In this document: one piece after another, positions 13,690 through 32,851 of the stretch | Position numbering within the stretch: the stretch's first letter is position 1 | Layout: each line of letters starts with the position of its first letter | Assembly (NCBI GenBank): GCA_002435305.1 | Contig: DJMH01000036.1 | Span: forward strand, 86,750 to 143,545 | Direction of reading: 5' to 3' | Length of the DNA: 56,796 nucleotides | From: Dehalococcoidia bacterium UBA6495 | GTDB taxonomy: Bacteria; Chloroflexota; Dehalococcoidia; Lucifugimonadales; UBA826 | Notes under the pieces: generated by a model | The model's database searches: none | What the model was told of the DNA's origin: nothing | The model's input: only the letters and a program-made list of their open reading frames with translations | Position numbers and translations under genes: made by a program

Positions 13690-13711
13690 GTTTACTTGGA
13701 AATTCTTGTAC

Positions 13712-14065: not shown

Positions 14066-14083
14066 AATGAATATCTCCTATTT

Positions 14084-15133: not shown

Positions 15134-15151
15134 TTAAATAGTCTCCTGTAT

Positions 15152-15751: not shown

Positions 15752-15808
15752 TTGTTTACACTCTATTTTTTTCTGCTAATTTCATGTTTGGAAGGTAGAA
15801 AATATTTC

Positions 15809-16195
15809 CTAAACCCTTCTTCTCTTCGGAGGACGACATCCATTATGGGGAATGGGAGTAACATCTTTTATGCTACTAACGATTATCCCGGCCCCCTGTA
15901 TGGCTCTAATCGCAGCCTCTCTTCCAGCTCCTGGGCCTCTGACAAAAACATCTACTTGCCTTACCCCTTCGCCCATAGCCTTCTTTGCTGCGTCTTCTCC
16001 AGCTCTTTGAGCAGCAAAAGCTGTCGATTTACGAGAGCCTCGAAATCCAGCTGTTCCTGCACTGCCCCAGGCAACCGTATTACCAGTAGGGTCAGTCAGA
16101 GTTACTATCGTATTGTTGAAGGTAGATTGAATGTACGCTCTACCCAAAGGTACAGGTCCTCTATCCCTTTTTCTTGTCCTCGGCCGTCTAGCCAT
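15809..16195 (-). CDS. rpsK: 30S ribosomal protein uS11
   Basis: [16 protein letters not shown] and [12 protein letters not shown]. Confidence 0.97.
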
Positions 16196-16237
16196 TATTT
16201 AACTCCTTAGGTTACCGATGCCATTAAGAAATTTCGT

Positions 16238-16615
16238 TTACCTAGTTGTAGAATGTTTCCTCGAAACTGCCATTTTTCGGCCTCTTTTAGCCCTGGCATT
16301 AGTTTTAGTCCTTTGACCCCTTGTAGGTAGCCCTCGCCTATGGCGTGTTCCTCGATAGCACCCGATGTCAATCAATCTTCGTATGTTTTGATTGACCTCC
16401 CTCCTCAGATCCCCTTCCACCATACGCCCTTTATCTATGATTTCCCTCATTCGATTCAAATCTTCATCCGACAAATCTCTTACTCGGGGATTATCAATAA
16501 TCCCTGCCTGGTTAATTACATCCAATGCCATCGTTCGACCAATCCCATAGATACTGGTCAATGCAGTCTCGACCCGTTTCGCGTCTGGTATGTTCACCCC
16601 TGCTATTATAGCCAT
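16238..16615 (-). CDS. rpsM: 30S ribosomal protein uS13
   Basis: MAIIAGVNIP and YRGTRHRRGLPTRGQRTKTNAR. Confidence 0.97.
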   Translation of the reverse strand: MAIIAGVNIPDAKRVETALTSIYGIGRTMALDVINQAGIIDNPRVRDLSDEDLNRMREIIDKGRMVEGDLRREVNQNIRRLIDIGCYRGTRHRRGLPTRGQRTKTNARAKRGRKMAVSRKHSTTR

Positions 16616-16624
16616 CAGTCACCT

Positions 16625-16738
16625 TTATCCTTGTCTTTGCTTATGCTTGGGATTTTCGCAGATAATCCTTACCCGACCTTTACGACGAATAACCCGGCAT
16701 TTAGCGCACCTAACTTTCACGGAAGCGCTAACCTTCAT
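16625..16738 (-). CDS. rpmJ: 50S ribosomal protein bL36 (zinc-ribbon form)
   Basis: Too short for the ORF track. Minus-strand ATG 16738 to TAA 16625 hand-translates to [37 protein letters not shown]. Sits in the canonical slot between infA and rpsM. Confidence 0.93.
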
Positions 16739-16788
16739 AACCTACTCCATTTCGTACTGCTGTCGTTTCTTTCAAATCCATTAATAAA

Positions 16789-17013
16789 CTATCTAAACCT
16801 ATATGTGATCCTGCCCCTTGTTAGATCATATGGAGATAGGTCCACCAGCACTCTATCACCAGGCAAAACCCGAATATAATTAACCCTCAACTTCCCTGAT
16901 ATATAGGCGAGTACTTCATGACCATTGGCGAGTTCAACTTTAAAAGAAGCATTCGGCAGTGCTTCTAGCACGGTACCTTCTACTTCTATTGACTCTTTTT
17001 CCCTTTTAGTCAT
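16789..17013 (-). CDS. infA: translation initiation factor IF-1
   Basis: 74 aa S1-like fold: [32 protein letters not shown]. Confidence 0.97.
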
Positions 17014-17044
17014 AAAACTCCTATCGTTAGTCTTCCTGCCCTTT

Positions 17045-17830
17045 TTATGTCAAAACCTCAGGACCTTCAGAAGTTATTACCACAGTATGTTCTGAATGGG
17101 CAGATAATTCCCCATCCTCAGTTACCACAGTCCAGCCATCCGGCATAATTTTGGTTTTCCATGTGCCTATATTAAGCATCGGTTCAATCGCTAATACCAT
17201 ACCTTCTTGCAATAAAGGGCCCCTACCGGGACTTCCATAGTTCGGAATTTGTGGTTCTTCATGAAGGGCTCTACCTATCCCATGTCCAACGTATTCCCTG
17301 ACAACTGAAAACCCTTCAGCTTCTGCAAAAACCTGTATCGCATTAGATATGTCAGTCAGCCGGCTCCCAGGCGTAGCCTTTGCTATACCTGCAAACAAAG
17401 ATTCCGCGGTCACATCAATCAGTTTCTGAGCTGTGTCTGTCACTAGCCCTACCCCTGCAGTGAATGCACTATCCCCGTGATATCCTTCTACAATCGCTCC
17501 AAAATCTACACTGACTATATCACCGTCTTGCATCTTACGGTCACTCGGAATGCCATGCACAATTTCTTCGTTAAAGGAGAAACAAATCGTGGCTGGAAAA
17601 GGCGGCATATGAGGGGCTGGCTGATATCCCTTAAATGAAGGAATAGCTCCCCTTTTTTTTATTATCTCCTCCGCTAAAGCGTCCATCTCTGCGCTAGTTA
17701 CCCCTGGGGCCAAAGCATTTTTCACCGCTGATTTGGCTTCGGCTATAATGCGCCCTGCCTCTCTCATCAAACTAATCTCTCGAGGAGCCTTGACAGTTAT
17801 CCCTTTGGTGTTAGCATTTCCGGCCGTCAT
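17045..17830 (-). CDS. map: type I methionine aminopeptidase
   Basis: 261 aa. Metal-ligand contexts [21 protein letters not shown] and EHTV. Confidence 0.95.
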
Positions 17831-17898
17831 AAACTAAATTATCCCAACCGTCAGCAAAAAAGCTGAAACACCATTATACAATGAACGCACTAGGGTAA

Positions 17899-18537
17899 TC
17901 ATCCCAAAGCCTTCCTTAGAGATTTTTCAACCACACGTATTGGGAGAGACCCATCTATTTCGAGTATATTGCCAGTTCCTTTATATCTTTCAACAACTGG
18001 GTCAGTTTCTTGTCTATATACCTTCAACCGCTCCCTCATAACAACCTCTGAATCATCATCTCGTTGGAACAAATCACCGCCACATTTATCGCACGCACCA
18101 TCATTTATGGGAGGGTAGAATTCTTTGTGATATGGAGTTTGGCATTTTCTACACAGCATCCTTCCAGACAACCTTTTTATCAACTCCAATTCCGGCACCT
18201 TGAATAATATTACTTTATCAATCCCACCTACTTCACTCAGGCGATCATCTAATGCCTGTGCTTGCGACAGTGTCCGAGGAAATCCATCTAAAATGAATCC
18301 TCTTTTATTTCCAGGATCTTCTATCCAAGACATCACCATATTTATGGTCACATCATCGGGTACATATTTGCCTTGATCCATATAGGTTTTGGCCAATTTC
18401 CCTAACTCGGTGTCATTGGCTAGATTCTCCCTAAACAAGTCTCCAGACGACACACTATTAACCTGCACAAGGGAAGCTACGAAGGAAGCCTGGGTACCTT
18501 TACCCGAACCTGGGGGACCCATAAGGACTATTTTCAT
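17899..18537 (-). CDS. adk: adenylate kinase (zinc-lid type)
   Basis: P-loop GPPGSGKGT and lid CRKC...CDKCGG. ATG 18537 (MKIVLMGPPG, AAGGTGA upstream) is preferred to the track GTG 18543. Confidence 0.96.
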   Translation of the reverse strand: MKIVLMGPPGSGKGTQASFVASLVQVNSVSSGDLFRENLANDTELGKLAKTYMDQGKYVPDDVTINMVMSWIEDPGNKRGFILDGFPRTLSQAQALDDRLSEVGGIDKVILFKVPELELIKRLSGRMLCRKCQTPYHKEFYPPINDGACDKCGGDLFQRDDDSEVVMRERLKVYRQETDPVVERYKGTGNILEIDGSLPIRVVEKSLRKALG

Positions 18538-18570
18538 ACCCACTCACCTTCGCGCTGATACATGTGAAAC

Positions 18571-19908
18571 CTATAAAAATCCTTCATAGTTACGCATCAA
18601 TAGCTGAGACTCCAACTGCCGCATAGTATCCAAGGCCACTCCAACCATGATTAGCAAACTAGTACTACTTAAGGTTAAGGCTTGAATTCCAGTTAGCTCA
18701 GAGACAAAATATGGAACTATTGCGATACCACCCAGGAAAAGGGCTCCTCCCCAAGTGATTCTTATTATCACCCTATTTAGATACTCCTGAGTTGGTAATC
18801 CTGGGCGTATCCCAGGTATAAATCCACCGTTTCTTTGTAAAGTTTCAGCAAGATTTTGCTGTTGGAAAATTACCAGGGTATAGAAAAAAGTAAACATTAC
18901 TACCAATATAAAAACAGCTATCCAATAGGGAAGGTTTGATGGATCAAGAGTACTTGCAAAAAAAGAGGCGATCGAATTTAAAAACCCATCGTCCAATGGA
19001 TCGTTAAAGTAGCTAGCAATCGTCCCTGGCAAGATTATTATTGAAAAAGCAAAAATCAACGGGATCATCCCTGCTGTATTCACTCTGATGGGTAAAAAAG
19101 AAGACCCACTCTGACGCTGCATCCGTCCTCCACGGAAGACACTCCTGCCATATTGCACTGGCACCCTACGCTGTGCCTCATTAAAAAAAACGATTATATA
19201 TATCAATGCAAACCCAATTACCCCAAGCATAATTAGTGTAGATACATAGTCATTTTCTAGAAATCCTCTTCCCAGCATTTGGGGCAGACCTGCAACGATA
19301 CCACCAAATATGATTAGAGAAACCCCGTTACCAAGACCTCTCTCAGTTATTAACTCGCCAAGCCAGACCAAAAACATGGTACCTGCAACAAGTGACAACA
19401 TCATGGCAAAGGTATGCAAATTTAGGCCAAAATCGACCCCAGGAAGCACTCCAGACGATCTGAGAAGGGTTAACTGGCCCCAACCTTGCATGAAAGCAAT
19501 CGGAACTGTCAAAAAATGGGTATATTGGTTGATTTTTTGGCGTCCAAACTCCCCTTCCTGAGATAACTCTTTGAGACCAGGCATAACTGGGGTGAGTATC
19601 TGCATAACGATCGAAGCCGTGATATATGGGTAAACACCTAGAGCAGCCACGCTTAAATTGGCTAAAGCACCGCCACTGAATAGATCCAAGAACCCTAGAA
19701 GTGCTTGATCACGAAATGCTTGGGATAAGGCTTGAGTGTCAACGCCAGGTACTGGAACGTGAGCAACAAACCTAAAAATAAGGAGCATTGCAAAGGTGAA
19801 AAGGATTTTGTACCGTAAATCTGGAACCTTCATTGCATCCAGCATGGACTGGATTAATTGAGGTCGCGATAATTGATCAGATCGAGACGATTGGGCTTGT
19901 CGAACCAT
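18571..19908 (-). CDS. secY: preprotein translocase subunit SecY
   Basis: 445 aa polytopic membrane protein in the conserved rplO-secY-adk slot. An alternative start at Met22 (19845) cannot be excluded. Confidence 0.95.
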   Translation of the reverse strand: MVRQAQSSRSDQLSRPQLIQSMLDAMKVPDLRYKILFTFAMLLIFRFVAHVPVPGVDTQALSQAFRDQALLGFLDLFSGGALANLSVAALGVYPYITASIVMQILTPVMPGLKELSQEGEFGRQKINQYTHFLTVPIAFMQGWGQLTLLRSSGVLPGVDFGLNLHTFAMMLSLVAGTMFLVWLGELITERGLGNGVSLIIFGGIVAGLPQMLGRGFLENDYVSTLIMLGVIGFALIYIIVFFNEAQRRVPVQYGRSVFRGGRMQRQSGSSFLPIRVNTAGMIPLIFAFSIIILPGTIASYFNDPLDDGFLNSIASFFASTLDPSNLPYWIAVFILVVMFTFFYTLVIFQQQNLAETLQRNGGFIPGIRPGLPTQEYLNRVIIRITWGGALFLGGIAIVPYFVSELTGIQALTLSSTSLLIMVGVALDTMRQLESQLLMRNYEGFL

Positions 19909-20364
19909 CTATTCTATTACCTGTATTGTTCCACCTGCCGTCTCAATTTTATTCTTAGCAGATTTCGTGAATTTATGAGCAGAGATCTTCAAATTTACCG
20001 TTATTTCACCCCTACCCAAAATTTTTATGGGTAATTTCTCATCTTTGATAACTCCGCTTTGAACCAATCCTTGTGGGGATACTTCGCCTCCGTCCGGGTA
20101 CACACGACAAATACTATCTATGTTTACTAGATGATATTTCGTTTTGAAAATGTTTGTGAAGCCTCTCAAGGACGGCATTCTTTTGATCAAAGACAGTTGA
20201 CCACCCTCGAACCCTGGTCTAACACCCCCGCCACTTCTGGATTTCTGACCTTTCATCCCTCGACCAGAAAAACTCCCATTTCCGCTACCATCTCCGCGGC
20301 CAATACGTTTTCGCTTCCCAGATTTAGATCCTGAAGATTTTATTGTGTGATTTTGCATAGTCAT
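19909..20364 (-). CDS. rplO: 50S ribosomal protein uL15
   Basis: Gly/Arg-rich N-terminus KRKRIGRGDGSGNG. Confidence 0.96.
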   Translation of the reverse strand: MTMQNHTIKSSGSKSGKRKRIGRGDGSGNGSFSGRGMKGQKSRSGGGVRPGFEGGQLSLIKRMPSLRGFTNIFKTKYHLVNIDSICRVYPDGGEVSPQGLVQSGVIKDEKLPIKILGRGEITVNLKISAHKFTKSAKNKIETAGGTIQVIE

Positions 20365-20392
20365 ATCTAAATACCTAAATAATCAGTCCTCA

Positions 20393-20575
20393 TTATTCCC
20401 GCTCTCTAACCTCAACCAAATGTCCCACTTTCTTTAGCATCCCCATAATAGAAGGGGATGATTCATGTACCACTGTATGGTTTAATTTTCTAAGTCCCAA
20501 ACTCTCTATTATTCTTCTTTGCCTTTGAGAATAACCGATGGTACTTTTTTTCCATGTAACCGAAATTTTTGCCAT
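20393..20575 (-). CDS. rpmD: 50S ribosomal protein uL30
   Basis: 60 aa in the slot between rpsE and rplO. LGLRKLNHTVV segment. Confidence 0.93.
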   Translation of the reverse strand: MAKISVTWKKSTIGYSQRQRRIIESLGLRKLNHTVVHESSPSIMGMLKKVGHLVEVRERE

Positions 20576-20586
20576 TTTGCGATACC

Positions 20587-21147
20587 TTAATCTAATGGGT
20601 CCTGTGAAAGTGCGTCGCTCTTTGCAAGTGCGGTCCGCTGTGCGTATTCCCGCCTTCGAGAAATCTCAACTTCTGGGTCCCTAAGCATTTGGAGTCCTTT
20701 GAGGGTTGCTTTAACAACATTGGTAGGATTGGTGCTTCGCCTCACTTTAGTAACAATATCCTTCACACCCACCAATTCAACAACGGCCCTGACTGATTCT
20801 CCTGCGATCACCCCTGTTCCAGGAGGGGCTGGCTTCAGCATTACCATACTACCGCCAAATTTAGCTGAAACGTCATGAGCAATGGTATCTCCCTTCAATG
20901 GAATATCCACCATATTTTTTTGTGCATATGCAGAACCTTTGGTGATGGCATCTGGCACAGCAGAAGCTTTTCCCATACCTATTCCAACTCGTCCTTCTCC
21001 ATCACCAACCACTACGAGGGCACTGAAACTAAGATGTCGTCCACCTTTCACCACCTTCGAGACTCTATTAATGCGAACGGTGCGTTCTGTTATCGGAGAC
21101 TCTTCTTCCCGATCTTTGTTTCTTCTTCTGTCCTGTTTTTCCTGCAT
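20587..21147 (-). CDS. rpsE: 30S ribosomal protein uS5
   Basis: RINRVSKVVKGGRHLSFSALVVVGDG. Charged N-terminal extension. Confidence 0.97.
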   Translation of the reverse strand: MQEKQDRRRNKDREEESPITERTVRINRVSKVVKGGRHLSFSALVVVGDGEGRVGIGMGKASAVPDAITKGSAYAQKNMVDIPLKGDTIAHDVSAKFGGSMVMLKPAPPGTGVIAGESVRAVVELVGVKDIVTKVRRSTNPTNVVKATLKGLQMLRDPEVEISRRREYAQRTALAKSDALSQDPLD

Positions 21148-21189
21148 CTATTTAACACCTAAATCTGGGCATATTATTAATATACCCTG

Positions 21190-21555
21190 CTAAAATTTTA
21201 ACCCCGCTTCCCTAGCCCCTTCGGCAACTGCCTTGATCCTTCCGTGGTATTTATATCCGCCTCGGTCAAATACTATTTCACTTATTCCTTTTTCAGCCGC
21301 TCTCATACCAATTGACTCTCCAACCACTTTTGATATTAATATCTTTCCCGAGTCTGTATCTTTATCTTTCAATTCATTCTCTAGAGAGGAGGCAGCTGCA
21401 ATAGTGCTTCCTTCCACATCATTAATCAATTGGGCATATATATGTGAGATACTTCTATAGACTGCTAACCGCGGTCTCTCGGCGGTGCCTGAAATCTTAG
21501 ACCTGAGCCTATTATGACGAATCATCCTTCTCATTTTTCCATTTAAAGCTGACAT
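21190..21555 (-). CDS. rplR: 50S ribosomal protein uL18
   Basis: [14 protein letters not shown] and [11 protein letters not shown]. Confidence 0.97.
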
Positions 21556-21558
21556 AAT

Positions 21559-22101
21559 TTAGGCTCTCCTTGCACTCTTCCCAGGTTTCAGCTTCACCAG
21601 CTCGCCAGCGTACCTGATGCCCTTGCCCGTATATACGTTTGGTGGCCTTACTTTACGAATCTGGGACGCCAATTGACCAACAACCTGTTTATCAATACCT
21701 GACACTTTTATGTGCGTATTTCCGTCCACTTCTAATTCAGCACCCGAATCAGGTTGTATTTCCACCGAATGGCTAAACATAACATTCAAAGATATTCCTT
21801 TTCCTTTTTGTTGCACCCTGTAACCGACACCTACTAATTCCAATTCCTTAGTAAAACCCTCACTAACTCCCTTTACCATATTAGATAACAGGCTTCTGGT
21901 CAGTCCATGAAAAGCTTTATGTTTGCTTTCATCACTAGGCCTAGTGACTTTGACTATGTCTCCATCTTGGCTAATCATCATATCCTGGTGAAAATTTTGA
22001 CTTAAGCTACCCTTAGGGCCTTTTACTGTGACTTCCGTCCCATCGATAGTTACATCAACGCCCGATGGTATTTGTATTAATTGGTTTCCAATTCTCGACA
22101 T
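21559..22101 (-). CDS. rplF: 50S ribosomal protein uL6
   Basis: MSRIGNQLIQIPSGV N-terminus. ATG 22101 preferred, because the track start 22119 would overlap rpsH. Confidence 0.96.
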   Translation of the reverse strand: MSRIGNQLIQIPSGVDVTIDGTEVTVKGPKGSLSQNFHQDMMISQDGDIVKVTRPSDESKHKAFHGLTRSLLSNMVKGVSEGFTKELELVGVGYRVQQKGKGISLNVMFSHSVEIQPDSGAELEVDGNTHIKVSGIDKQVVGQLASQIRKVRPPNVYTGKGIRYAGELVKLKPGKSARRA

Positions 22102-22112
22102 AAAAATACTCC

Positions 22113-22514
22113 CTACCAAACGTAGAATAAAACCTCACCACCTACCCCGCTCCGTTTTGCCTCTATCCCTGTCATAACACCTTTATTTGTTGAGACCACA
22201 GCAATTCCTCTATTACCATATACAATCGGTAATTCATTATTTTTGGAGTATATGCGAAGACCTGGCTTGCTAATTCTCTTTAATCCAGTTATTGCAGGTT
22301 CTCCTTTTTGCCAATAATGGAGGTTCAATTGTATATTCGCATCGATTTGACCCTCGTTTTGTATCTCATACCCTTCCAAAAACCCTTCCTTTTCCAATAT
22401 CTGAGCTATCTCTACCTTTAAGTTAGAGACTGGTACATCGACTGATTGATGGCCAATCATCACTGCGTTTCGAATTCTTGTGAGCATATCGGCGATCGGA
22501 TCTGTTAATGACAT
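22113..22514 (-). CDS. rpsH: 30S ribosomal protein uS8
   Basis: DPIADMLTRIRNA and C-terminal GGEVLFYVW. Confidence 0.97.
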   Translation of the reverse strand: MSLTDPIADMLTRIRNAVMIGHQSVDVPVSNLKVEIAQILEKEGFLEGYEIQNEGQIDANIQLNLHYWQKGEPAITGLKRISKPGLRIYSKNNELPIVYGNRGIAVVSTNKGVMTGIEAKRSGVGGEVLFYVW

Positions 22515-22524
22515 ATTCTTTTAC

Positions 22525-22830
22525 CTACCAACTTGCTTTTTTTACACCAGGTAGTTCACCTGCATGTGCCATCTCACGAAAAGCTATACGAGACAACCCA
22601 AAATATCTGATATAACCATGAGGCCTGCCAGTTATCTGGCACCGATTTCTTATTCTTACGGGGTTAGCATTCCTTGGCAATTTTGACATCTCTGTCCTAG
22701 CCTCCGCACGCGCCTGCAAAGATGAATTGGCATCCTTTATAACGTCCTGAAGTCGTTGCCTTCTCTCAGCATACTTTTCCACCAGTCTTCGTCTCTTCTC
22801 ATTTCTTGCAACAGATGATTTTTTTGCCAC
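22525..22830 (-). CDS. rpsN: 30S ribosomal protein uS14 (long, zinc-independent form)
   Basis: 101 aa ending [11 protein letters not shown]. No paired CxxC motifs. Confidence 0.96.
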
Positions 22831-22875
22831 TTTTATATCCTTAGAAAATTATTAATCCTAATTTTATTCAATTGA

Positions 22876-23463
22876 TTAGTTTCTTATAAAAGGCATACCG
22901 GCCAATTCTAGGAACCTCATACCCTCTTGATCATTTACGGCAGATGTAACTATCACGATTTGCATACCACGTATCCTATCAATCGAGTTGTAATCAATTT
23001 CCGGAAATATGGTGTGTTCCCTTATTCCAATTGAGTAGTTTCCCCTACCGTCGAAAGAGTTCCTTGAAAGACCTTGGAAGTCCCTAATTCTTGGCAATGA
23101 TGCATTCAAAAGCCTGTCAGTAAATTCATACATTCTTCGGCCTCTTATAGTCACCATGGCACCTATGGGCATTCCTTCTCTTATCTTGAATCCTGCTATC
23201 GATTTCTTAGCCTTCGTGGTCACAGGCCTTTGGCCTGTGATACGGCTCAGATCAGCCGTCACACTTTCAATGGCTTTAGCATTTTGCAAAGCTTCTCCTA
23301 ACCCAATATTGATAACCACCTTGTTCAAACGAGGTATCTGCATCACGCTGCTATAGCCAAATTCCTTCATCATCTCTGGACCTATCTCATCTCTTACCTT
23401 TTGCAGAAGACGAGGTGCGCTACCACTCGAGGTGGCAGATTGATTGGTATTATCATCTGGCAT
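22876..23463 (-). CDS. rplE: 50S ribosomal protein uL5
   Basis: 195 aa in the slot after rplX. The start ATG overlaps the rplX TAA by 1 nt. Short polar N-terminal extension. Confidence 0.96.
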
Positions 23464-23771
23464 TATTCAATAACCTCTTCGCAATTTTTGCAGATTCTTC
23501 CCTTCGAACCGTCTCCCATTATTCTGTTTGATACTTTTGCCGGCTTTTGGCAGTGGGTACAAACAAGCATCACGTTAGCAACCGCTACCGGGAGTTCTTT
23601 CTCCACAATTTCAGCACCACTCATGCCTTGAGCTTTCCTGTGTCGTTTAACCAAGTTGATGCCCTCAACTAAAACTTTTCCTCTACCTGGAAATACACTC
23701 TGGACCGGTCCTTGCCTGCCCTTATCTTTTCCCTTAATCACCAACACATTATCGTTTTTCCTTATCTTCAT
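23463..23771 (-). CDS. rplX: 50S ribosomal protein uL24
   Basis: KOW motif [14 protein letters not shown]-terminal CTHC...CKNC pairs. Confidence 0.96.
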
Positions 23772-23774
23772 TTC

Positions 23775-24143
23775 TTATATGACCTCCGGGGCAAGAGACA
23801 CAATTCTCATGAAATCTTTATCCCTTAATTCTCGAGCTACAGGCCCAAAAATACGAGTTCCTCGAGGCATTTTGTCTTCATTGATGATCACGGCTGCGTT
23901 CTCATCAAATTTAATATGTGATCCGTCTTTTCTTCGATGAGATTTTGCGGTTCTCACAATCACGGCCTTAACTACCTCACCCTTTTTCACTCCAGCTGCA
24001 GGAGCAGCATCTTTTACTGAGGCAACTATTACATCACCCAGCCAAGCATATTTTTTTCCAGACCCACCTGGCACTCCTATACAACTTATGAGCCTTGCAC
24101 CAGAATTGTCTGCGACCTTTAATCTCGTATATATTTGTATCAT
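23775..24143 (-). CDS. rplN: 50S ribosomal protein uL14
   Basis: [17 protein letters not shown]-terminus. Confidence 0.97.
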
Positions 24144-24160
24144 CGTTGTCGCCTCAACAT

Positions 24161-24484
24161 TTACTCGCTATCTTTACCATCGTCTTTTTTCATTGCAGGC
24201 ACAGTTATCTCTCCCGGTTGAACCTCTGCCACATCACCCTTTTGTATTATTTCGGTAACTTTCCACCTTTTGGTTTTAGACAAAGGCCTAGTTTCTACAA
24301 TCCGAACCGTATCTCCAAGATTGCAAGAGTTTCCCTCGTCGTGAACCATAAATTTATTCCAGCGTTTGACATTTTTCTTATATATTCTGTGGGGCTGACT
24401 CCATTCAACCGAAACGACGACCGTTTTATCCATCTTCTGACTGACTACTCGTCCCACCCTTATTTTTCTACGATCGTGACTCAT
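24161..24484 (-). CDS. rpsQ: 30S ribosomal protein uS17
   Basis: [17 protein letters not shown]. About 20 aa of charged C-terminal tail. Confidence 0.96.
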
Positions 24485-24687
24485 GAGGAACTCTCTGATA
24501 TCTCTCTTTCTCTTATAACTGTCATTATTCTTGCTATCTTCCTTTGAGTTTTTTTTACTGCGTTGGTGTCGGTAAGTTGCATTGTTGCAGTTCTAAATCT
24601 CAAATTCATAACATCTTTCTGGATAGAGTCAAGATTCTCTATTAAATCTTGATCATTCATATTTCTAATGTCGTCAATCTCCGCCAT
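24481..24687 (-). CDS. rpmC: 50S ribosomal protein uL29
   Basis: 68 aa helical protein in the rplP-rpmC-rpsQ slot. 4-nt overlap with rpsQ. Confidence 0.94.
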
Positions 24688-24738
24688 AATTAGCTCGCTG
24701 TTGTATTTTGAGGTTTTATCCTTGGTTTGTTAATTATT

Positions 24739-25164
24739 CTATTCTTTAGACCTTACATTAGTCCTAGAAACAATTCGGGTTCCCATAGGCATTTTTGATG
24801 CTGCCAAAGTAAGTGCATGTTTAGCAGTTTCCTCAGGTATACCGGCCATCTCAAACATTATTTTCCCTGGTTTAACAACTGCTACCCAATGATCTGGGGC
24901 TCCCTTACCTTTCCCCATTCTAGTTTCTGCTGCCCTAGCCGTCACACTTTTATCAGGAAACACTCTTACCCACATTCTTCCGCCTCTCCTGGCATACCTA
25001 GTCATAGCCCTTCTGGCAGCCTCAATTTGTCTGGAAGTTACCCAAGCGTTTTCCGTGGCCTTAAGTCCAAAATCACCAAAATTTAGAGAACTACCAGCAA
25101 CAGATAGTCCTTTCCTCCTACCCCTATGGTGGTTTCTATATTTCACTCTTTTAGGTTGAAGCAT
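24739..25164 (-). CDS. rplP: 50S ribosomal protein uL16
   Basis: [17 protein letters not shown]-terminus from ATG 25164 (track start is 25182). Overlaps the rpsC 3' end by 14 nt. Confidence 0.96.
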
Positions 25165-25987
25165 CTGTATTTGCTCCTTCATCTTCTTTGTTATCTTCGT
25201 TCACCGATTCTGTTTGATCCAACGAAGATCCTGTAGAAACAGGGTTATCCTCCTGAGCCGTAACCATCACCTGGATTGGTGCCACATCTGTTTCTTCTAT
25301 TTCGTTTGAAGCAGCAATTTGGTCTGAGCTAGATGAATTTTCCCCAATTATCGTGGGGTTTAATATTTCTCCTCTGCAAATCCATACTTTTACTCCGATG
25401 ACACCGAACTCTGTTTGAGCCTCTGCTAATCCATAATCTATGTCTGCCCTCAGGGTGTGCAATGGAACCCTTCCTTCCATCGCTTTCTCTGCTCTAGCTA
25501 TATCTGCACCAGCTAGTCTTCCCGAACATGTGATTTTTATTCCCTCAGCCCCAGCCTGCATTGTTCGCATTATCGCTTGTCGAATAGCTCTTCTAAAGGC
25601 TATTCTCCTTTCAAGTTGGTCGGCGACGTTGCGGGCGACGAGATAGGCATCTAATTCAGCTTGCCTAACCTCTACTACATTAAGTTTGGCTCTTCGGCTT
25701 CCTGTGAGGGTCTCCAAATGTTTCCTAAGCTCGTCTACCCTCTGCCCTCCCCTACCAATCACAATACCGGGTCTTGCGGTATGGATAGTAACTGCCACCT
25801 CATTGGAATCTCTTTCGATATCAACCTTTGATATTCCAGCATCTTCATACATCACATCTATTGCTCGGCGGATATCAATATCCTCTTTCACAAGGCTAGC
25901 GTAATCTTTTTGCCCAGCAAACCAAGTAGCATGCCAATCTCTAGTGATACCTACTCTAAAACCATTAGGGTGAATTTTTTGTCCCAA
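25151..25987 (-). CDS. rpsC: 30S ribosomal protein uS3 with acidic C-terminal tail
   Basis: The canonical N-terminus (M)[12 protein letters not shown] is obtained from TTG 25987, 1 nt after the rplV stop. The track start 26008 would overlap rplV. KH domain [11 protein letters not shown]. Confidence 0.95.
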
Positions 25988-25988
25988 A

Positions 25989-26327
25989 CTACAGTTCCTC
26001 CTCTTCAACTACAACTGTTATATGGCTACTTCTTCTGTTAATGCGCCCGACTCTTCCGCGTGCTCGAGCTCTAAATCTTTTTAGTCGGGGACCCTCATTA
26101 GCAAATATTTCGATTATTTTTAAGTCCTCACTCCTAGCCATCATTTCATTTTCTGCATTTGAAGCCGCTGATTTTACAGTTTTTGCAACTCTAGCTGCCG
26201 CTGGCGATTGCAAAAATTGCAAGGCTGTCAAGGCCTCATCGACCTTCATACCCCTAACTAGATTAGCTATAGGCTTCAGCTTTTTTACCGATATACCTGT
26301 ATTACTCGATTTTGCTCTTATACTCAC
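25989..26327 (-). CDS. rplV: 50S ribosomal protein uL22
   Basis: 112 aa in the slot between rpsS and rps[19 protein letters not shown]. Confidence 0.96.
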
Positions 26328-26355
26328 TACTATTCCTCAGTAAAGGTCGATCTTT

Positions 26356-26640
26356 CTATCCGATCCTAGACGCTCTTTCCGATTTAGTTGAATGGCCTCT
26401 AAAAGTTCGAGTTGGTGAAAACTCTCCTAATTTATGACCAACCATATTTTCAGTGACAAATACCGGCACATGCCTTCTGCCATCGTGTACTGCAATGGTC
26501 AACCCCAACATATCAGGCATGATCATAGATGCCCTGGACCAAGTTTTTATCACTTCTCTACTATTTGATTTAACTGCTTGGTCAATTTTTTTGGCCAATT
26601 TTGGGTGCACGTACGGCCCTTTCTTTATTGAACGCGACAT
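26356..26640 (-). CDS. rpsS: 30S ribosomal protein uS19
   Basis: [11 protein letters not shown] and [16 protein letters not shown]. Confidence 0.97.
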
Positions 26641-26661
26641 TTAGTTACACCTTTTAATGAT

Positions 26662-27495
26662 TTACTTGTCATATCTTCTTCTTACTATGAATTTACTAGA
26701 GGGTTTGTTCTTTTTCCTGGTCCGGTATCCAAGAGCAGGTTTACCCCATGGTGTTTTTGGCCCAGGCATACCTATCGGAGACCTACCTTCACCTCCCCCG
26801 TGTGGATGAGCGTTTGGGGCCATTGCAGACCCGCGCACCTCTGGCCTTCTACCCAAGTTTCTTTTCCTGCCAGCTTTACCAAGTTTCACATTTTTCTTAT
26901 CTAGGGCGCTCAACTGACCAACCGTCGCCATACACGTACTTAAAACATTTCTCATTTCTCCGGAGGGTAAGCGCAATAAAGTGTACTTTCCCTCGCTAGC
27001 CAATACCTGTGCATAGCTACCTGCACTTCTCACAATCTGTCCACCTTTCCCTTTGGTCAATTCGACATTATGTACCAAAGTTCCCGATGGTATTTTTTCT
27101 AATGGCAATGCATGGCCTGGACGAATATCAGAGTCCTCACCAGATCTAACTCGGTCTCCTACATGTATTTCATTTGGAGCCAGGATATATCGCCAATCAC
27201 CGTTCTCAAACTTAATAAGGGCTATTCGGCAAGAACGATTAGGATCATATTCAATGGTCTCGACCATCCCTAGCACACCATAGTTATCTCTTTTAAAATC
27301 TATCACCCTATATCGTCTCTTATGACCTCCGCCACGATGCCTCACCGTTACACGTCCAGTAGAATTTCTTCCACCTGTTTTCTTTAAAGGCCTGACTAAG
27401 TTTTTTCGCGGCTTTCTTTCAGTTATATCGTCCGTACTCTGAAGTACTAATCCTCTTTGGCCTGGGGTTATTGGTTTTCTAGTTTTTAACGGCAT
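26662..27495 (-). CDS. rplB: 50S ribosomal protein uL2
   Basis: [18 protein letters not shown] and [14 protein letters not shown] 27495 overlaps the rplW stop (TGATG). Confidence 0.97.
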
Positions 27496-27788
27496 CAAAC
27501 TCCCTCAAACAAAGTTATCGAATCCCCAGGAGCCACTGAAACAATGGCCTTCTTCCAGGAGGGTTTCGGCGAGAATCTGGGACCAAAGCGCTTCATTTTC
27601 CCTTTCACGTTCATGGTGTTGACTTTAATCACCGTGACCCCGAAAACTTCCTGGACTGCCTCTTTAACTTCCAGTTTGGTAGCAGTTTTAGCGACTTCAA
27701 ACACATAGCGACCATCTTCTTGCATCAGTGTAGATTTTTCCGTAATCAAGGGTCGTTTTAGAATTGCGTATTTATGATGTTTACTCAT
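27495..27788 (-). CDS. rplW: 50S ribosomal protein uL23
   Basis: 97 aa in the slot between rplD and rplB. Confidence 0.95.
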
Positions 27789-27801
27789 CTCTGCTTACCT
27801 T

Positions 27802-28749
27802 TTATTCCCAGTCTGAGGGGAGTAACTTTATATTTTGCAGCTGTTCCCGAACGTCCAGATAAGACTTCTCTCCAAAACTTTGGATAGCCATAAGTTCTAC
27901 TTTGGATAGACTGATCAGATCATTGATTTCAGTGACGCCAGCTCGCAACAATATGTTTCTAGTTCTGGTCGAAAGGTTGAGCTCTTCTACAGCAGTCATG
28001 TTGATTTTTTCCACAACGACCTCGTCCACTGAATCTTCCACAATTTGAGGTTCAACATGAGCTTCTTCTTTCTCCACATCAATTTCTTCGCCTGAAGGAT
28101 CGCTTGAAGAAGTTCCCCCTCTATAGACTCCTCCCCATAACTCTTCGATTCTTTTTACTGCGTCAACCGTGATTATTAATTGCTTTTTATTAAGTAAGTC
28201 TAATGTGTTGAGTACTTGCACTGGTAAAGTTCTTACTCCCCCAACATTTCCAGCTGATTGAACCAACTTTTTATTGGGTCCGTCAGTTACTATCAAAGCT
28301 GAATTCGAGATGTTCAAAGCAGAAAGTATCGACACAATCTCTTTTGTCTTTCCTTCCTTCAATTCTAGCGAATCAAGAAGAAGCAAATCTGAATGGCGGG
28401 CCTTATCAGACAGAACTGACAACAATGCCAACCGCCTCATCTTCTTGGGAGTCCGCTTCCTGTAGCTTCGCGGGGAAGGCCCAAAGGCTCTTCCACCACC
28501 AACCCACACAGGGGACCTGATAGTACCCTGCCTGGAACTTCCTGTATGCTTTTGTGGTCGAGGTTTAGCCCCGCCGCCTGACACTTCTGATCTGGTTTTG
28601 GTTTTGGCCGTGCCTTGCCTCTTGTTAGCCAGCTGGCCAACCATTACCTGATGAACCAAGGCTGATTTAACAGGCACTCCAAAAACATCGTCGCGAACTT
28701 CCAAATCGCCAGTGTTCTCTCCCTGAATATTTTTTATTTGAAGTTTCAC
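27802..28749 (-). CDS. rplD: 50S ribosomal protein uL4 fused to a C-terminal RNA-polymerase-alpha-CTD-like domain
   Basis: 315 aa. Residues 1 to about 205 are a normal uL4 (GGGAKPRPQKHTGSSRQG, VWVGGGRAFGP). Residues about 207-315 are an acidic linker plus a helix-hairpin-helix module paralogous to the rpoA CTD. Confidence 0.93.
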   Translation of the reverse strand: MKLQIKNIQGENTGDLEVRDDVFGVPVKSALVHQVMVGQLANKRQGTAKTKTRSEVSGGGAKPRPQKHTGSSRQGTIRSPVWVGGGRAFGPSPRSYRKRTPKKMRRLALLSVLSDKARHSDLLLLDSLELKEGKTKEIVSILSALNISNSALIVTDGPNKKLVQSAGNVGGVRTLPVQVLNTLDLLNKKQLIITVDAVKRIEELWGGVYRGGTSSSDPSGEEIDVEKEEAHVEPQIVEDSVDEVVVEKINMTAVEELNLSTRTRNILLRAGVTEINDLISLSKVELMAIQSFGEKSYLDVREQLQNIKLLPSDWE

Positions 28750-28754
28750 TACTT

Positions 28755-29387
28755 TTAACTCTTTGTATTGGATTTAGATATAAGTAGTAAAGAATTACGA
28801 TGCCCAGGCACAGCACCTTTCACCAACAGAAGATTCCTCTCAGCATCCACCATTACGACATCCAAATTCTTCACAGTCACCTTGTCTCCACCCATACGAC
28901 CTGCCATTCTCATTCCTTTGATAACACGTCCCGGGGTTGTTCCAGCTCCAATTGATCCTGGAGCACGATGCCTATCAGATTGACCGTGGGTTTTGGGTCC
29001 TCCCCGAAAGTTATATCTTTTAACCCCTCCCTGGAACCCTTTTCCTTTCGAAACCCCTGTGACATTAACTTTTTCCCCGGCCTCAAACATTCCCACGTCA
29101 ATTTGGGACCCCACTTCTAAACCTTCATAATCTTCAGACTTTGTCTCTCTGAGGTGTCGGAACAGATCACTACCAGCCACCGCCAAGTGACCACTTTTTG
29201 GTTTATTTGACCTCTTAACCCTTTCAAATCCCAATTGAACGCTTTGATATCCATCTTTTTTCAAAGATTTGATCTGTGTGATAGTGCAAGGACCAGCTTC
29301 AATAGCAGTAACAGCGTGAGCAGTACCGTCCTCATAAAAGTACTGGGTCCCCCCAATGACTTTTCCTATTATCCCTACAATTGACAT
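28755..29387 (-). CDS. rplC: 50S ribosomal protein uL3
   Basis: GIIGKVIGGTQ and FRGGPKTHGQSDRHRAPGSIG. ATG 29387 preferred, because the track start 29423 would overlap rpsJ. Confidence 0.96.
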   Translation of the reverse strand: MSIVGIIGKVIGGTQYFYEDGTAHAVTAIEAGPCTITQIKSLKKDGYQSVQLGFERVKRSNKPKSGHLAVAGSDLFRHLRETKSEDYEGLEVGSQIDVGMFEAGEKVNVTGVSKGKGFQGGVKRYNFRGGPKTHGQSDRHRAPGSIGAGTTPGRVIKGMRMAGRMGGDKVTVKNLDVVMVDAERNLLLVKGAVPGHRNSLLLISKSNTKS

Positions 29388-29397
29388 CTTTCTGTAC

Positions 29398-29712
29398 CTA
29401 CAACTTGATTGATATGTCCACACCCGCAGGCATGTCCAGATTGGTCAATGCATCTATCGTTTTAGATGTGGGGTTATGTATATCGATAAGTCGATTATGA
29501 GTTCGCATCTCGAAATGCTCCCGTGAATCCTTATCAATGTGGGGCGCCCTTAACACACAAAACCGTTTGATAGCAGTGGGTAGTGGCACCGGGCCGGCAA
29601 CCCTAGCTCCAGTCCTTTCAGCAGTTTCAACTATTTGGCCTGCGGACTGATCCAAAATTCTGTGATCAAATGCTTTTAATATAACTCTGATTTTTTGGGA
29701 GTTCTGTACCAT
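29398..29712 (-). CDS. rpsJ: 30S ribosomal protein uS10
   Basis: [15 protein letters not shown]. Begins 12 nt after the fusA stop. Confidence 0.97.
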
Positions 29713-29724
29713 TTCTTAAATGTC

Positions 29725-31785
29725 CTAAGTGGCCTGAGCTTCCACGACTGACTCAGGAGCCTCCAAATATTTTTCAAATTCCATAGAATATCCAGCCCTT
29801 CCTTGAGTGATAGAGCGTAAATCATTTGCGTATCCAAAACTCTCGGCCAATGGAAGAGATGCTTTAACTATTTGAGTGTCCCCTTGGGCATCAATACTCT
29901 CCACTCCAGCCCTTCTCCTACCCAGATCTCCGATTACTTCTCCCAAGTAATCTTCAGGGGTAACAACTTCCAGTTTCATCACAGGCTCCAGAACGACAGG
30001 GCTGCATCTGTCAATAGCTGTCCTTGTGGCCATTGAGCCAGCAATTTCAAATGAAACTTTGGAGGAATCAACGTCGTGGTAAGTACCATCAATAAGCCTA
30101 ACCAGAAGATCAATTACCGGAAATCCTGACTTAGGCCCATTTTTCAATGCACCTCGGACACCATCCTCCACTGAAGATATAAATTCGATCGGAATAGACC
30201 CCCCTCTGATACGGTTTTCAAACTGTACCCCCTCACCTCTTTTCAGTGGTTCCATCTCTATTATGACGTGGCCGTATTGGCCATGACCTCCAGATTGCCT
30301 TATAAATTTGCCTTCGGCGGTTGTTGTTTTTCTAATAGTCTCTCTGAATGCAACTCTTGGTTTTCCAACGTTGGCTTCAATTTTAAATTCTCTCTTCATA
30401 CGTTCGGTCAGAATTTCCAGGTGCAATTCACCCATACCGGACATAACAGTCTGACCGGTTTCATCATTATAATTAATTGTGAAAGTAGGATCTTCATCAG
30501 ACAATTTGACCAATGCATCAGACAACTTATCTTGATCTACTCTAGCTTTGGGTTCAATTGCAACGGATACAACTGGATCTGGAAATTCAATCTTTTCCAG
30601 TAAAATTGGGTCTTGTATCGAACTGATGGTCTCGCCGGTGGTGGTATCCTTTAGACCAATTGCCGCAGCAATTTCCCCTGCAAAAACCTCCTCGACGTCT
30701 TCCCTTTGGTCTGCGTGCATTTTAACTATTCTGCCGAGTCTTTCCCTGTCTCCTGTCACAGTATTCAAAACACTGGTCCCTGACTTAGCTGAACCAGAGT
30801 AAACACGGAAATAAACAAGCCTACCGATAAAGGGGTCCGTCACAGTTTTAAAGGCAAGTGCCGCGAACGGTTCCTCGTTGCTGGCGTCTCTGGCGATCAC
30901 GTCATCAGTACCTGGCTTAACACCTTCAACTGGAGGAACATCCAAAGGTGAAGGTAAATATTCTCCTATTGCATCTAGCAAAGGCTGAACGCATTTGTTT
31001 TTTAAAGCAGTCCCACAAAGAACAGGAACAACCTTATTCGAAATGGTTACGGTCCGTATAGCTGCCTTAAGTTCTTCCTGCGAGATATCCTCTTCAAGAA
31101 GAAATTTTTCCAGGAGATTATCGTCTTGCTCCGCTATCTTCTCAATCATTTCTGATCGCCTAATCTCAAATTCTTCCATGAACTCATCGGGGACTCCACC
31201 TTCAGTCATGTTCCCCTCTTCATCGAATGTAAAAGATCTACCTTCTACCAGATCAATCACCCCATAGAATTGATCCTCACTCCCCATAGGTATCTGTATT
31301 GGAACAGGGTTTGCCTTTAGCCTCTGCACTATGGTGTCTATCGCGTGGTAGTAATCACCGCCCACCTTATCCATTTTGTTTATAAAACAAATGCGAGGCA
31401 CCTGATATTTATCAGCTTGTCTCCACACAGTCTCGGACTGAGGTTGAACTCCGGCTACAGAATCAAACACAACAATACCACCGTCCAAAATTCTAAGGCT
31501 CCTCTCCACTTCAGCGGTAAAATCCACGTGCCCGGGGGTGTCAATAATATTCAACTCCCAATCTTTCCACTGGGTCGCTGTAGCGGCAGAAACTATGGTT
31601 ATTCCCCTCTCTCTTTCTTGGTCCATCCAGTCGGTAGCTGTGTTTCCATCATCAACGGTACCCAATTTATGGATGCGCCCGGTAAAATATAAAACTCTCT
31701 CTGACACAGTCGTTTTACCTGCGTCAATGTGGGCGATAAAACCAATATTTCTAGTTTGTTTTAGGGAATTCCGTGCCACTGTCAA
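29725..31785 (-). CDS. fusA: elongation factor G
   Basis: 686 aa. G1 AHIDAGKTT, G3 DTPGHVDF, G4 NKMD. Confidence 0.97.
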   Translation of the reverse strand: MTVARNSLKQTRNIGFIAHIDAGKTTVSERVLYFTGRIHKLGTVDDGNTATDWMDQERERGITIVSAATATQWKDWELNIIDTPGHVDFTAEVERSLRILDGGIVVFDSVAGVQPQSETVWRQADKYQVPRICFINKMDKVGGDYYHAIDTIVQRLKANPVPIQIPMGSEDQFYGVIDLVEGRSFTFDEEGNMTEGGVPDEFMEEFEIRRSEMIEKIAEQDDNLLEKFLLEEDISQEELKAAIRTVTISNKVVPVLCGTALKNKCVQPLLDAIGEYLPSPLDVPPVEGVKPGTDDVIARDASNEEPFAALAFKTVTDPFIGRLVYFRVYSGSAKSGTSVLNTVTGDRERLGRIVKMHADQREDVEEVFAGEIAAAIGLKDTTTGETISSIQDPILLEKIEFPDPVVSVAIEPKARVDQDKLSDALVKLSDEDPTFTINYNDETGQTVMSGMGELHLEILTERMKREFKIEANVGKPRVAFRETIRKTTTAEGKFIRQSGGHGQYGHVIIEMEPLKRGEGVQFENRIRGGSIPIEFISSVEDGVRGALKNGPKSGFPVIDLLVRLIDGTYHDVDSSKVSFEIAGSMATRTAIDRCSPVVLEPVMKLEVVTPEDYLGEVIGDLGRRRAGVESIDAQGDTQIVKASLPLAESFGYANDLRSITQGRAGYSMEFEKYLEAPESVVEAQAT

Positions 31786-31812
31786 TATCCTTCAATAGGG
31801 ATTACTAAATCA

Positions 31813-32283
31813 TCACCAGCGATAATGAGCAAAGGCCCTGTTGGCCTCTGCCATCCTGAAAACCTCTTCTTTACGCCTCACAGCTGCTCCCTGTCCCCTA
31901 GAAGCATCCAACAATTCGGCTGACAACTTCTCTGACATTCCCCTGCCTGACCTTTGCCTTGCACCCGTAACAAGCCACCTCATGGCTAAAGCCATACGCC
32001 GTGCCGGCCTAACTTCGGCGGGCACTTGGTAATTGGCTCCTCCAACTCTTCTAGAACGTACCTCAATCATAGGAGTGGCATTTCGAATTGCTTGCTCGAA
32101 AACCTCGAATCCGGATCTGCCTGCTTCTTGCTCTACGCTATCTATGGCAGAGTAAACAATTTTTTGGGCAACTGTTTTTTTACCATTGGACATAACATTA
32201 TTTATAAATTTGGCCAGATCGACACTATTATATTTAGGGTCCGGCAAAATCTTTCTTATTTCTGCTCTTCTTCTTCTCGCCAT
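31813..32283 (-). CDS. rpsG: 30S ribosomal protein uS7
   Basis: [18 protein letters not shown] and C-terminal FAHYRW. Confidence 0.97.
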
Positions 32284-32335
32284 ATAACTTCTCTGAATTG
32301 ATACCTTAATTTACAACAAGCCATTATCTATTAAT

Positions 32336-32752
32336 TTAACTTTCTTCTATTCGAGTTCCGTATTTGCTACGACTTCTCTTTCGATCCTGAACCCCAGCTG
32401 TATCTAAAACCCCTCGCACAACGTGATACCGTACTCCTGGCAAATCTCGAACCTTACCGCCTCTTATTAAAACAACTGAGTGTTCCTGCAAATTATGTCC
32501 CTCACCCGGAATATAGGCGGTTACCTCCATTCCATTGGTCAGCCTGACACGAGCTACCTTCCTCAAGGCCGAATTAGGTTTCTTAGGTGTCTGAGTTCTG
32601 ACTTGGACACATACCCCACGTTTGTGTGGAGAGCGTGCCCCTCGGTTACCCTTATTCTTTAGAGTGTTCCAAGTAAGATCTAACGCAGGTGCCGTATTTT
32701 TCCGTACCTTCTTGCGCCTCTTCTTCCTTATGAGTTGGTTAACCGTAGGCAT
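32336..32752 (-). CDS. rpsL: 30S ribosomal protein uS12
   Basis: [10 protein letters not shown] and [16 protein letters not shown]. Confidence 0.97.
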
Positions 32753-32822
32753 AAAAAATCCTGTTTTTTTGTCTCTTTTTTTGACCGAAATAAACCATCG
32801 CTTTTAGGGGCGACAAGGAATA

Positions 32823-32851
32823 ATTATAGCTATGGATAAAATGTGTGTCAA
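32823..32851 (-). promoter_or_regulatory. consensus sigma70-type promoter of the rpsL cluster
   Basis: The minus strand reads TTGACA (32851-32846), 17 nt (CACATTTTATCCATAGC), then TATAAT (32828-32823). It lies about 70 nt upstream of the rpsL ATG. Confidence 0.75.

Follow-up and report, generated by a model that had tools for sequence, protein, structure and literature searches.

The 56,796-nucleotide stretch analysed here, called the window throughout, belongs to contig DJMH01000036.1 of Dehalococcoidia bacterium UBA6495. Its str, S10, spc and alpha ribosomal-protein clusters follow one another without a break for about 20 kb on the minus strand (12931–32752), from rpsL through rplQ to truA. 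Within this run lie, in an order shared with related contigs, rpsJ (29398–29712), rplC, rplD (27802–28749), rplW (27495–27788), and rplB. The subject of this text is rplD, the gene for ribosomal protein uL4, whose reading frame continues beyond the uL4 core into a copy of the carboxyl-terminal domain of the RNA polymerase alpha subunit (alpha-CTD). It is virtually certain that this is an ordinary rplD gene between rplC and rplW, and that its product extends from the solvent-exposed uL4 carboxyl terminus through a disordered acidic linker of about 40 amino acids (aa) to a folded paralogue of the lineage's own RpoA CTD.

Both domains are textbook material; joined, they amount to an extension of a ribosomal protein that is particular to the lineage and built from a domain of RNA polymerase. 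The initial annotation of this DNA knew of no functional characterization of such an architecture, and full-text literature searches likewise found neither a description nor a characterization of uL4 joined to an alpha-CTD. The fusion also goes unmentioned in a 2024 review of the extraribosomal roles of uL4 (PMC10931766). The wider setting is the tightness of the connection between RNA polymerase and the ribosome outside Escherichia coli, together with the means by which ribosomal proteins reach nascent rRNA. In this abundant ocean lineage, a core ribosomal protein bears the very module with which RNA polymerase meets DNA, activators, and NusA.

The fused rplD frame

The complete fusion open reading frame (ORF; 27802–28749, minus strand) is a single open frame of 948 nt without interruption. 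It encodes 315 aa and includes a TAA stop codon located 10 nt upstream of rplW. Four parts follow one another, all on the minus strand: the uL4 core (28129–28749; residues 1–207), which ends ...VDAVKRIEELWGG; the acidic, disordered linker (28012–28128; residues 208–246), with 12 aspartate or glutamate residues versus two lysine or arginine residues; the alpha-CTD paralogue (27835–28011; residues 247–305); and a short carboxyl-terminal segment (27805–27834; residues 306–315) with the conserved sequence LPSDWE at its end. The initial annotation had described a 315-residue product in a continuous frame, divided into uL4 core, acidic linker, and alpha-CTD. The sequences that it quoted are exact, and the division is borne out by Pfam matches to both domains, by the predicted disorder of the linker, and by the predicted fold of the tail. 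Candidate junction and linker peptides of the fusion protein are GGTSSSDPSGEEIDVEK, EEAHVEPQIVEDSVDEVVVEK, and INMTAVEELNLSTR.

Pfam assigns residues 17–203 to Ribosomal_L4 (PF00573; E 2.5e-67; 226.7 bits versus a cut-off of 25.8), covering positions 2–189 of the 190 in the profile. Residues 247–305 match RNA_pol_A_CTD (PF03118; E 4.1e-14), covering positions 8–66 of 67; this was the profile against which the initial annotation had proposed to check the tail, and the score is 52.5 bits versus a curated cut-off of 23.8. Pfam reports only these two domains in the fusion ORF, with no match to RNA_pol_L or RNA_pol_A_bac. Judged from its domain content, the uL4 tail domain is a paralogous alpha-CTD, not an RpoA and not a part of RNA polymerase.

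The alpha-CTD is a helix-hairpin-helix module. A structural model of the tail, also proposed at the outset, yields a confident four-helix alpha-CTD fold, with the helices at the expected positions and a predicted local distance difference test score (pLDDT) of 92–95 over the domain. The best 50 Foldseek matches of this model in the PDB are all RpoA alpha-CTDs, with template modelling (TM) scores of up to 0.92 and root-mean-square deviations (rmsd) of about 1–2 Å; individual comparisons include 1z3e_B (TM 0.86), 9dvt_A (rmsd 1.0 Å), and 7vpd_S (TM 0.92). A PDB sequence search with the tail returns RpoA chains only, and reveals no solved ribosome with an alpha-CTD-bearing uL4. As modelled, then, the tail domain is a compact four-helix, double helix-hairpin-helix alpha-CTD fold. 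An AlphaFold model of the full-length protein was used for the tail and for linker disorder only: residues 200–248 are disordered (pLDDT <50), and residues 250–310 are confident. The alignment for the uL4 core is shallow and the core pLDDT lies below 55; Foldseek still ranks bacterial uL4 chains top (E 1e-11).

A frameshift, a chimeric assembly, or a missed stop codon might have fused rplD with a stray rpoA fragment, and the initial annotation had advised a check for such an artefact. The probability of this is negligible. The same uninterrupted 948-nt ORF is shared by eight independent assemblies from different samples (L085–L092; TARA, LUOE, JGI, and other sample names), each of which also retains rpoA, with its own CTD, 13 kb downstream. 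A protein identical to that of the window (P0001) is present on 24 contigs, and a total of 153 fusion proteins were collected, 54–100% identical to the window protein. Moreover, purifying selection (see below) respects the reading frame. Both Pfam domains are found in 120 of 120 homologues among those listed, down to 75% identity. Nothing was found in favour of an artefact: the fusion is real, and it lies in an expressed frame. Source names of the fusion homologues are "SAR202 cluster bacterium", "Chloroflexota", and "Dehalococcoidia". The sources annotate the protein merely as "50S ribosomal protein L4"; its domain architecture is visible in precomputed Pfam annotations.

Separate expression of the tail from an internal start was considered and rejected. 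Met244 is not conserved in the 76% clade, and no Shine-Dalgarno-like sequence is seen upstream by eye.

Parentage and distribution of the tail

The parent gene, rpoA (14084–15133, minus strand), belongs to the same ribosomal gene cluster as rplD and lies about 13 kb downstream of it. It encodes a 349-aa protein in which Pfam recognizes RNA_pol_L, RNA_pol_A_bac, and RNA_pol_A_CTD (70.2 bits), the last at residues 259–314. BLASTP aligns the uL4 tail to this RpoA with 42% identity over 69 aa (E 8e-16). Over the 58-aa domain, encoded in rpoA at 14168–14341 (minus strand), the alignment is gapless and 25 of 58 positions are identical, the same count that had been made by hand in the initial annotation. 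According to tblastn, the window contains exactly two alpha-CTD copies, at 27805–27990 and 14168–14341. A candidate third copy at 1982–2077 was dismissed: it is a weak tblastn match inside an OmpR-type response regulator, and is attributed to chance.

Identity to the window RpoA CTD is 43% for the window tail and 53–66% for the tails of a second form, type B, compared with 33% for the Bacillus subtilis CTD and 29% for that of E. coli. The tails and the SAR202 RpoA CTDs have two motifs in common, ..NMT.EEL.LS.R and SK.ELL.I..FGEKSY. Furthermore, the LPSDWE sequence at the end of the tail aligns to ILPDHLDP, a motif that comes right after the CTD in SAR202 RpoA. Because identity is closest to the SAR202 RpoA CTD, because the lineage motifs are shared, and because LPSDWE and ILPDHLDP align, the tail is, by these comparisons, a paralogue of the 3' end of the lineage's own rpoA. 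All tails share residues D280 (E, Q, or H in SAR202 RpoAs) and L307 (F in RpoAs of the same clade), which hints at one old origin of the tail followed by losses. In a tree of the CTDs, built from 58 positions and with weak support, 8% of bootstraps unite the type-A with the type-B tails, and 43% unite all SAR202 sequences. For the type-B (P0121) lineage, the uL6-anchored metagenome scan gave short contigs only (L095–L097), without rpoA.

The RpoA protein has extensions of its own. Its amino terminus carries an acidic extension (…DAPEEEEEEIV…), and its CTD is followed by a 30-aa acidic tail that evolves fast, with a ratio of non-synonymous to synonymous polymorphism (pN/pS) of 0.55. This acidic tail opens with the motif LP-D/E-x-L-D-P, which is conserved in most SAR202 RpoAs compared and missing from L168 and L174, the two most distant of them.

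The initial annotation had called for a survey of uL4 architecture, and the result is a patchy distribution of the fusion in one SAR202 subclade plus Parcubacteria-like bacteria. In a neighbour-joining tree of 16 concatenated ribosomal proteins (about 2,300 columns), every SAR202 lineage with the fusion falls into a single clade, which has 100% bootstrap support. Members with the domain are type A, which includes the window and is itself monophyletic at 100%; type B (L094); and P0409, in which the linker is basic and AKP-rich. Among the domain-retaining lineages, uL4 cores are as low as 64% identical, and PF03118 scores in the other fusion lineages range from 41.8 to 74.2 bits. The carriers are monophyletic in 0% of bootstraps, and P0409 joins the non-fusion lineages L098 and L102 at 99%. 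Because the carriers never group alone, and because P0409 groups with L098 and L102, either several losses or several captures must be supposed: on this tree, the alpha-CTD on uL4 is a domain lost or gained several times within the SAR202 clade.

Outside this clade, Dehalococcoidia and "SAR202" genomes have short acidic uL4 tails only. Such low-complexity tails (for example, ...ADEGEEE in non-fusion relatives) occupy the same position as the alpha-CTD extension, past a ...WGG motif, but contain no folded domain. A search of GTDB representative genomes with a generic uL4 peptide pattern yielded at least one fusion-bearing genome (L001) among the matches listed.

Three Parcubacteria-like uL4 proteins (P0170, P0272, and P0226) combine a basic linker with an alpha-CTD, for which scores of 61.8 and 41.8 bits were obtained. 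The relatives nearest to them, 67% identical, are tailless, and P0272 is encoded in a normal tuf-S10-L3-L4-L23 cluster. As far as these sequences tell, the Parcubacteria-like fusion is independent of the SAR202 one.

Many related uL4 proteins end in long low-complexity tails without a folded domain (P0126, P0136, P0160, P0161, and P0139; loci L003 and L156). Some of these tails are hyper-acidic, in proteins of up to 381 aa in total; others are basic and rich in AKP or KAE, much like histone H1 tails. In a sister lineage, L098 and L102, the 70-aa acidic uL4 tail ends in a conserved sequence, LSD(E/K)ELF(K/N)ALVEEID(V/I)E; this tail exceeds no Pfam threshold and does not resemble the alpha-CTD. 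The uL4 carboxyl terminus is evidently permissive, and apparently a hot spot for extension in this part of the tree.

Constraint and possible function of the tail

Selection was estimated at two levels: as the ratio of non-synonymous to synonymous substitution (dN/dS; Nei-Gojobori), comparing the window with contigs that are 95% and 90% protein-identical and those two with each other; and as pN/pS at the population level, among nine near-identical contigs. The uL4 core has a dN/dS of 0.07–0.11 and a pN/pS of 0.05. Values for the linker are 0.35–0.76 and 0.74, respectively, and for the tail CTD, 0.15–0.33 and 0.10. The last ten residues show no non-synonymous change in the dN/dS comparisons and no change in the pN/pS set; among type-A tails, residues L310, P311, D313, and W314 are invariant. 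The linker is 39% identical to that of the 76% clade. Because dN/dS and pN/pS lie below the linker values, the tail CTD and the terminal LPSDWE are, by these estimates, under constraint, and the linker appears to keep mainly its acidic composition.

Which residues are kept bears on function. Residues of the window tail are numbered three below their counterparts in E. coli alpha (for which sequence and numbering were confirmed against the PDB), so that R262, N265, G293, K295, and S296 of the tail correspond to E. coli R265, N268, G296, K298, and S299. Conservation was scored in the 64 distinct tail CTDs that occur in the 153 fusion proteins. R265, G296, and S299 are kept in all 64, and N268 and K298 each in 63. 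The DNA-contact residues of E. coli alpha (the "265 determinant") are R265, N268, C269, G296, K298, and S299. Five of these six are essentially invariant in the 64 tails; in place of the remaining residue, C269, tails of the window's type have I or L. To judge from this pattern, purifying selection acts chiefly on the fold and the DNA-contact residues.

This suggests a model, which we favour tentatively and at somewhat less than even confidence, in which the tail is a flexibly tethered adaptor that brings uL4 or the 50S subunit into contact with the transcription apparatus. The tail would keep the alpha-CTD surface, with R265 inserted into the DNA minor groove and N268, G296, K298, and S299 placed on the backbone, and would be freed of the constraints put on the RpoA CTD by its many other partners. 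Through this surface, uL4 would dock on AT-rich DNA near RNA polymerase, or on NusA; the docking uL4 might be either the free early assembly protein or that already on the 50S subunit. Docking would concentrate uL4 or ribosomes locally where RNA is made, to the benefit of transcription-translation coupling, of the co-transcriptional loading of nascent 23S rRNA with uL4, or of both. Docking on NusA, DNA, or transcription factors, which the initial annotation had suggested, is plausible and gains some support because the DNA-contact residues are invariant. Because sister lineages manage without the domain, its role would be accessory rather than essential. A more specific version is possible, if doubtful: the tail would link uL4 or the 50S subunit, independently of NusG, to NusA, RNA polymerase, or promoter-proximal DNA for coupling or co-transcriptional assembly, and this link would have originated once in SAR202 and once in Parcubacteria-like bacteria, if not more often.

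Known systems offer partial parallels. In coupled complexes from E. coli, NusA AR2 and the NusA amino-terminal domain each hold one alpha-CTD, and NusA touches the 30S subunit (bioRxiv 10.1101/2020.03.01.972380). For its part, uL4 joins the 50S subunit early in assembly, and is known to bind proteins and to act outside the ribosome (PMC10931766). The bridging by E. coli NusG and NusA is alike in concept, in that a flexibly linked small domain joins RNA polymerase and the ribosome. In contrast, the alpha-CTD here would come from the large subunit, in an arrangement known from sequence and model. In the coupling factors NusG and RfaH, an NGN domain binds RNA polymerase and a KOW domain binds uS10. 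Pfam finds neither domain in the fusion protein; any resemblance to these factors would be functional only.

The closest comparison is to the RpoA alpha-CTD itself. Both domains belong to the PF03118 family, share a fold (TM up to 0.92), keep R265, N268, G296, K298, and S299, and are small domains that end a long flexible linker. However, the tail sits on a ribosomal protein rather than on the alpha amino-terminal domain, and its linker of about 40 aa is strongly acidic. Moreover, the two evolve differently, and here begin several observations that weigh against an adaptor function. Contigs from the uL6-anchored metagenome scan provided pairs of rplD and rpoA. Between the window and the fusion lineages L110 and L117, the RpoA CTD is 95–98% identical versus 55–64% for the uL4-tail CTD; because of this difference, the tail CTD is estimated to evolve more than 10 times faster than the RpoA CTD in the same genome pairs. 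The tails vary freely at positions 267, 269, 271, 272, 293, and 294 (E. coli numbering), all of which are fixed in SAR202 RpoA CTDs. C269, K271, and N294 are thus fixed in RpoA yet variable in tails, and two of these, C269 and N294, presumably contribute to UP-element binding in E. coli.

The remaining observations on this side concern distribution and linker charge. Three lineages of the same 100%-supported clade are without the domain: uL4 is 226 aa long in L002 (with no remnant), 244 aa in L119, and 275 aa in L098 and L102 (with the unrelated acidic tail). No decayed alpha-CTD remnant is detected by tblastn in L002–L015, and neither Pfam nor BLASTP gives anything significant in the L102 and L119 tails. 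Because close relatives in the same clade are cleanly without the domain, the function of the tail would be dispensable. Finally, the charge of the linker varies: most linkers are acidic, and those of P0409 and the Parcubacteria-like forms are basic and AKP-rich.

Several of these observations would also be expected of a weakly functional or near-neutral passenger, a duplicated piece of the rpoA 3' end that was caught on the addition-tolerant uL4 carboxyl terminus, does little or nothing specific, and is in slow decay or on its way to loss. Related uL4 proteins do carry many unrelated tails (long acidic, AKP-rich basic, or short EGEEE), the tail CTD outpaces its parent by more than 10 times, and the patchiness within the clade (carriers together in 0% of bootstraps; P0409 with L098 and L102 at 99%) includes L002, which is cleanly without the domain and has no remnant. 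Nevertheless, a passenger is unlikely. The tail dN/dS of 0.1–0.3 is clearly under that of the adjacent linker; residues R265, N268, and K298, which contribute nothing structural to the fold, do not vary among tails with an overall identity of about 41%; the domain is kept across lineages whose uL4 cores are 64% identical; and the recruitment onto uL4 was repeated independently in Parcubacteria-like bacteria.

Alternatively, the domain could act within the ribosome: by binding an adjacent ribosomal protein, or a helix of the 23S or 16S rRNA, at the ribosome surface, it would stabilize or remodel the ribosome, with transcription not involved. Helix-hairpin-helix domains bind nucleic-acid backbones without sequence specificity, and the nucleic-acid-contact residues of the tail are conserved. 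There is also an example in eukaryotic uL4, whose long carboxyl-terminal extension spans the ribosome surface and is linked to assembly and protein delivery. Like the tail, this extension is a lineage-specific addition at the surface-exposed uL4 carboxyl terminus; unlike the tail, it is an extended peptide without an RNA polymerase-derived fold, and the two are not homologous. We consider such a ribosome-internal role quite improbable. The 40-aa disordered linker, relaxed in sequence and variable in length and charge, suggests reach over fixed docking; the domain evolves fast, whereas rRNA-contacting segments usually are very conserved; and sister lineages with near-identical ribosomal proteins are without the domain.

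The fusion offers a testable handle: a single 70-residue domain whose binding surface is known, R262A as an obvious control, and sister lineages that naturally do without the domain. Binding to NusA or DNA would make the tail a ribosome-encoded device for coupling or assembly. If it binds nothing, it would provide a clean case of a domain captured at a permissive ribosomal-protein terminus and thereafter subject to relaxed evolution and loss.

Operon control and neighbouring features

A further possibility concerns control of the operon itself. The alpha-CTD of free uL4 could contact NusA or RNA polymerase and so bring about attenuation or repression of its own operon, as a hard-wired form of the L4/NusA control in E. 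coli. There, uL4 and NusA attenuate transcription of the S10 operon (PMC10931766), and NusA binds the alpha-CTD (bioRxiv 10.1101/2020.03.01.972380); in both cases uL4, NusA, and RNA polymerase would be in functional interaction. Unlike the fusion, however, E. coli uL4 is without an alpha-CTD, and the E. coli mechanism needs a structured S10 leader. It is also limited to a few gamma-proteobacteria, namely enterobacteria, Haemophilus, and Vibrio (PMC10931766). S10 attenuation of the E. coli type, which the initial annotation had given as background, finds no support here and is a weak precedent for this lineage, which moreover has no leader before rpsJ.

The relevant spacer, between fusA and rpsJ (29713–29724), is 12 nt long, as the initial annotation had reported, with neither a tuf gene nor an S10 leader here. 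A search of the whole 56.8-kb window with Rfam (gathering thresholds) found no RNA family, and thus no tRNA, ribosomal-protein leader, or riboswitch. This null result comes from a window with more than 30 ribosomal-protein genes. The initial annotation had argued from the short spacer that this genome has no S10 leader. The 12-nt gap and the Rfam result sustain that argument, but it is incomplete: the cluster probably starts farther upstream, ahead of rpsL, where there is a leader hairpin.

The probable operon promoter and the hairpin with its U-run lie upstream of rpsL at 32795–32851 (minus strand). The promoter, TTGACA-17-TATAAT (32851–32823), matches the sigma-70 consensus at 12 of 12 positions and is situated about 70 nt upstream of rpsL; the small hairpin and U-run (32816–32795) follow directly. 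The hairpin comparison covered fusion-bearing contigs only, namely the window, L081, L083, and L094. In these, the positions of promoter and hairpin are conserved, and L094 has a different stem (CCCCC-TTCG-GGGGG). The cluster probably starts at this consensus promoter, and the hairpin may serve the entire ribosomal-protein cluster as a leader or attenuator. Given the promoter and the conserved hairpin and U-run upstream of rpsL, it is conceivable that the fused str-S10-spc-alpha cluster is under leader-based feedback.

For autogenous control by the uL4 tail, this leader, whose position is conserved in L094 despite the different stem, is a favourable sign, as are the E. coli precedents. Even so, we regard such control as very unlikely. 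The E. coli mechanism is phylogenetically confined, only 12 nt precede rpsJ with no S10-type leader and no Rfam match in the window, and the hairpin comparison was restricted to contigs that bear the fusion.

The same cluster layout, with relA/spoT, rpsT, rpsP, khpA, and rimM ahead, is found in L081, L083, L094, and L176. Two other genes of the cluster deserve mention. The mechanically called rplC ORF (28755–29423) starts at a GTG inside rpsJ and comprises 222 aa, and related contigs call a 210-aa uL3; the true uL3 start probably is an internal Met (MSIVGIIGK…) about 10 nt past the rpsJ stop codon. The gene rpmD (20393–20575) encodes uL30, whose exact 60-aa sequence is present in 204 blocks of a public assembly collection, on contigs of up to 0.2–1 Mb. 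The samples listed for it have marine-survey names such as TARA, which points to a widespread marine population.

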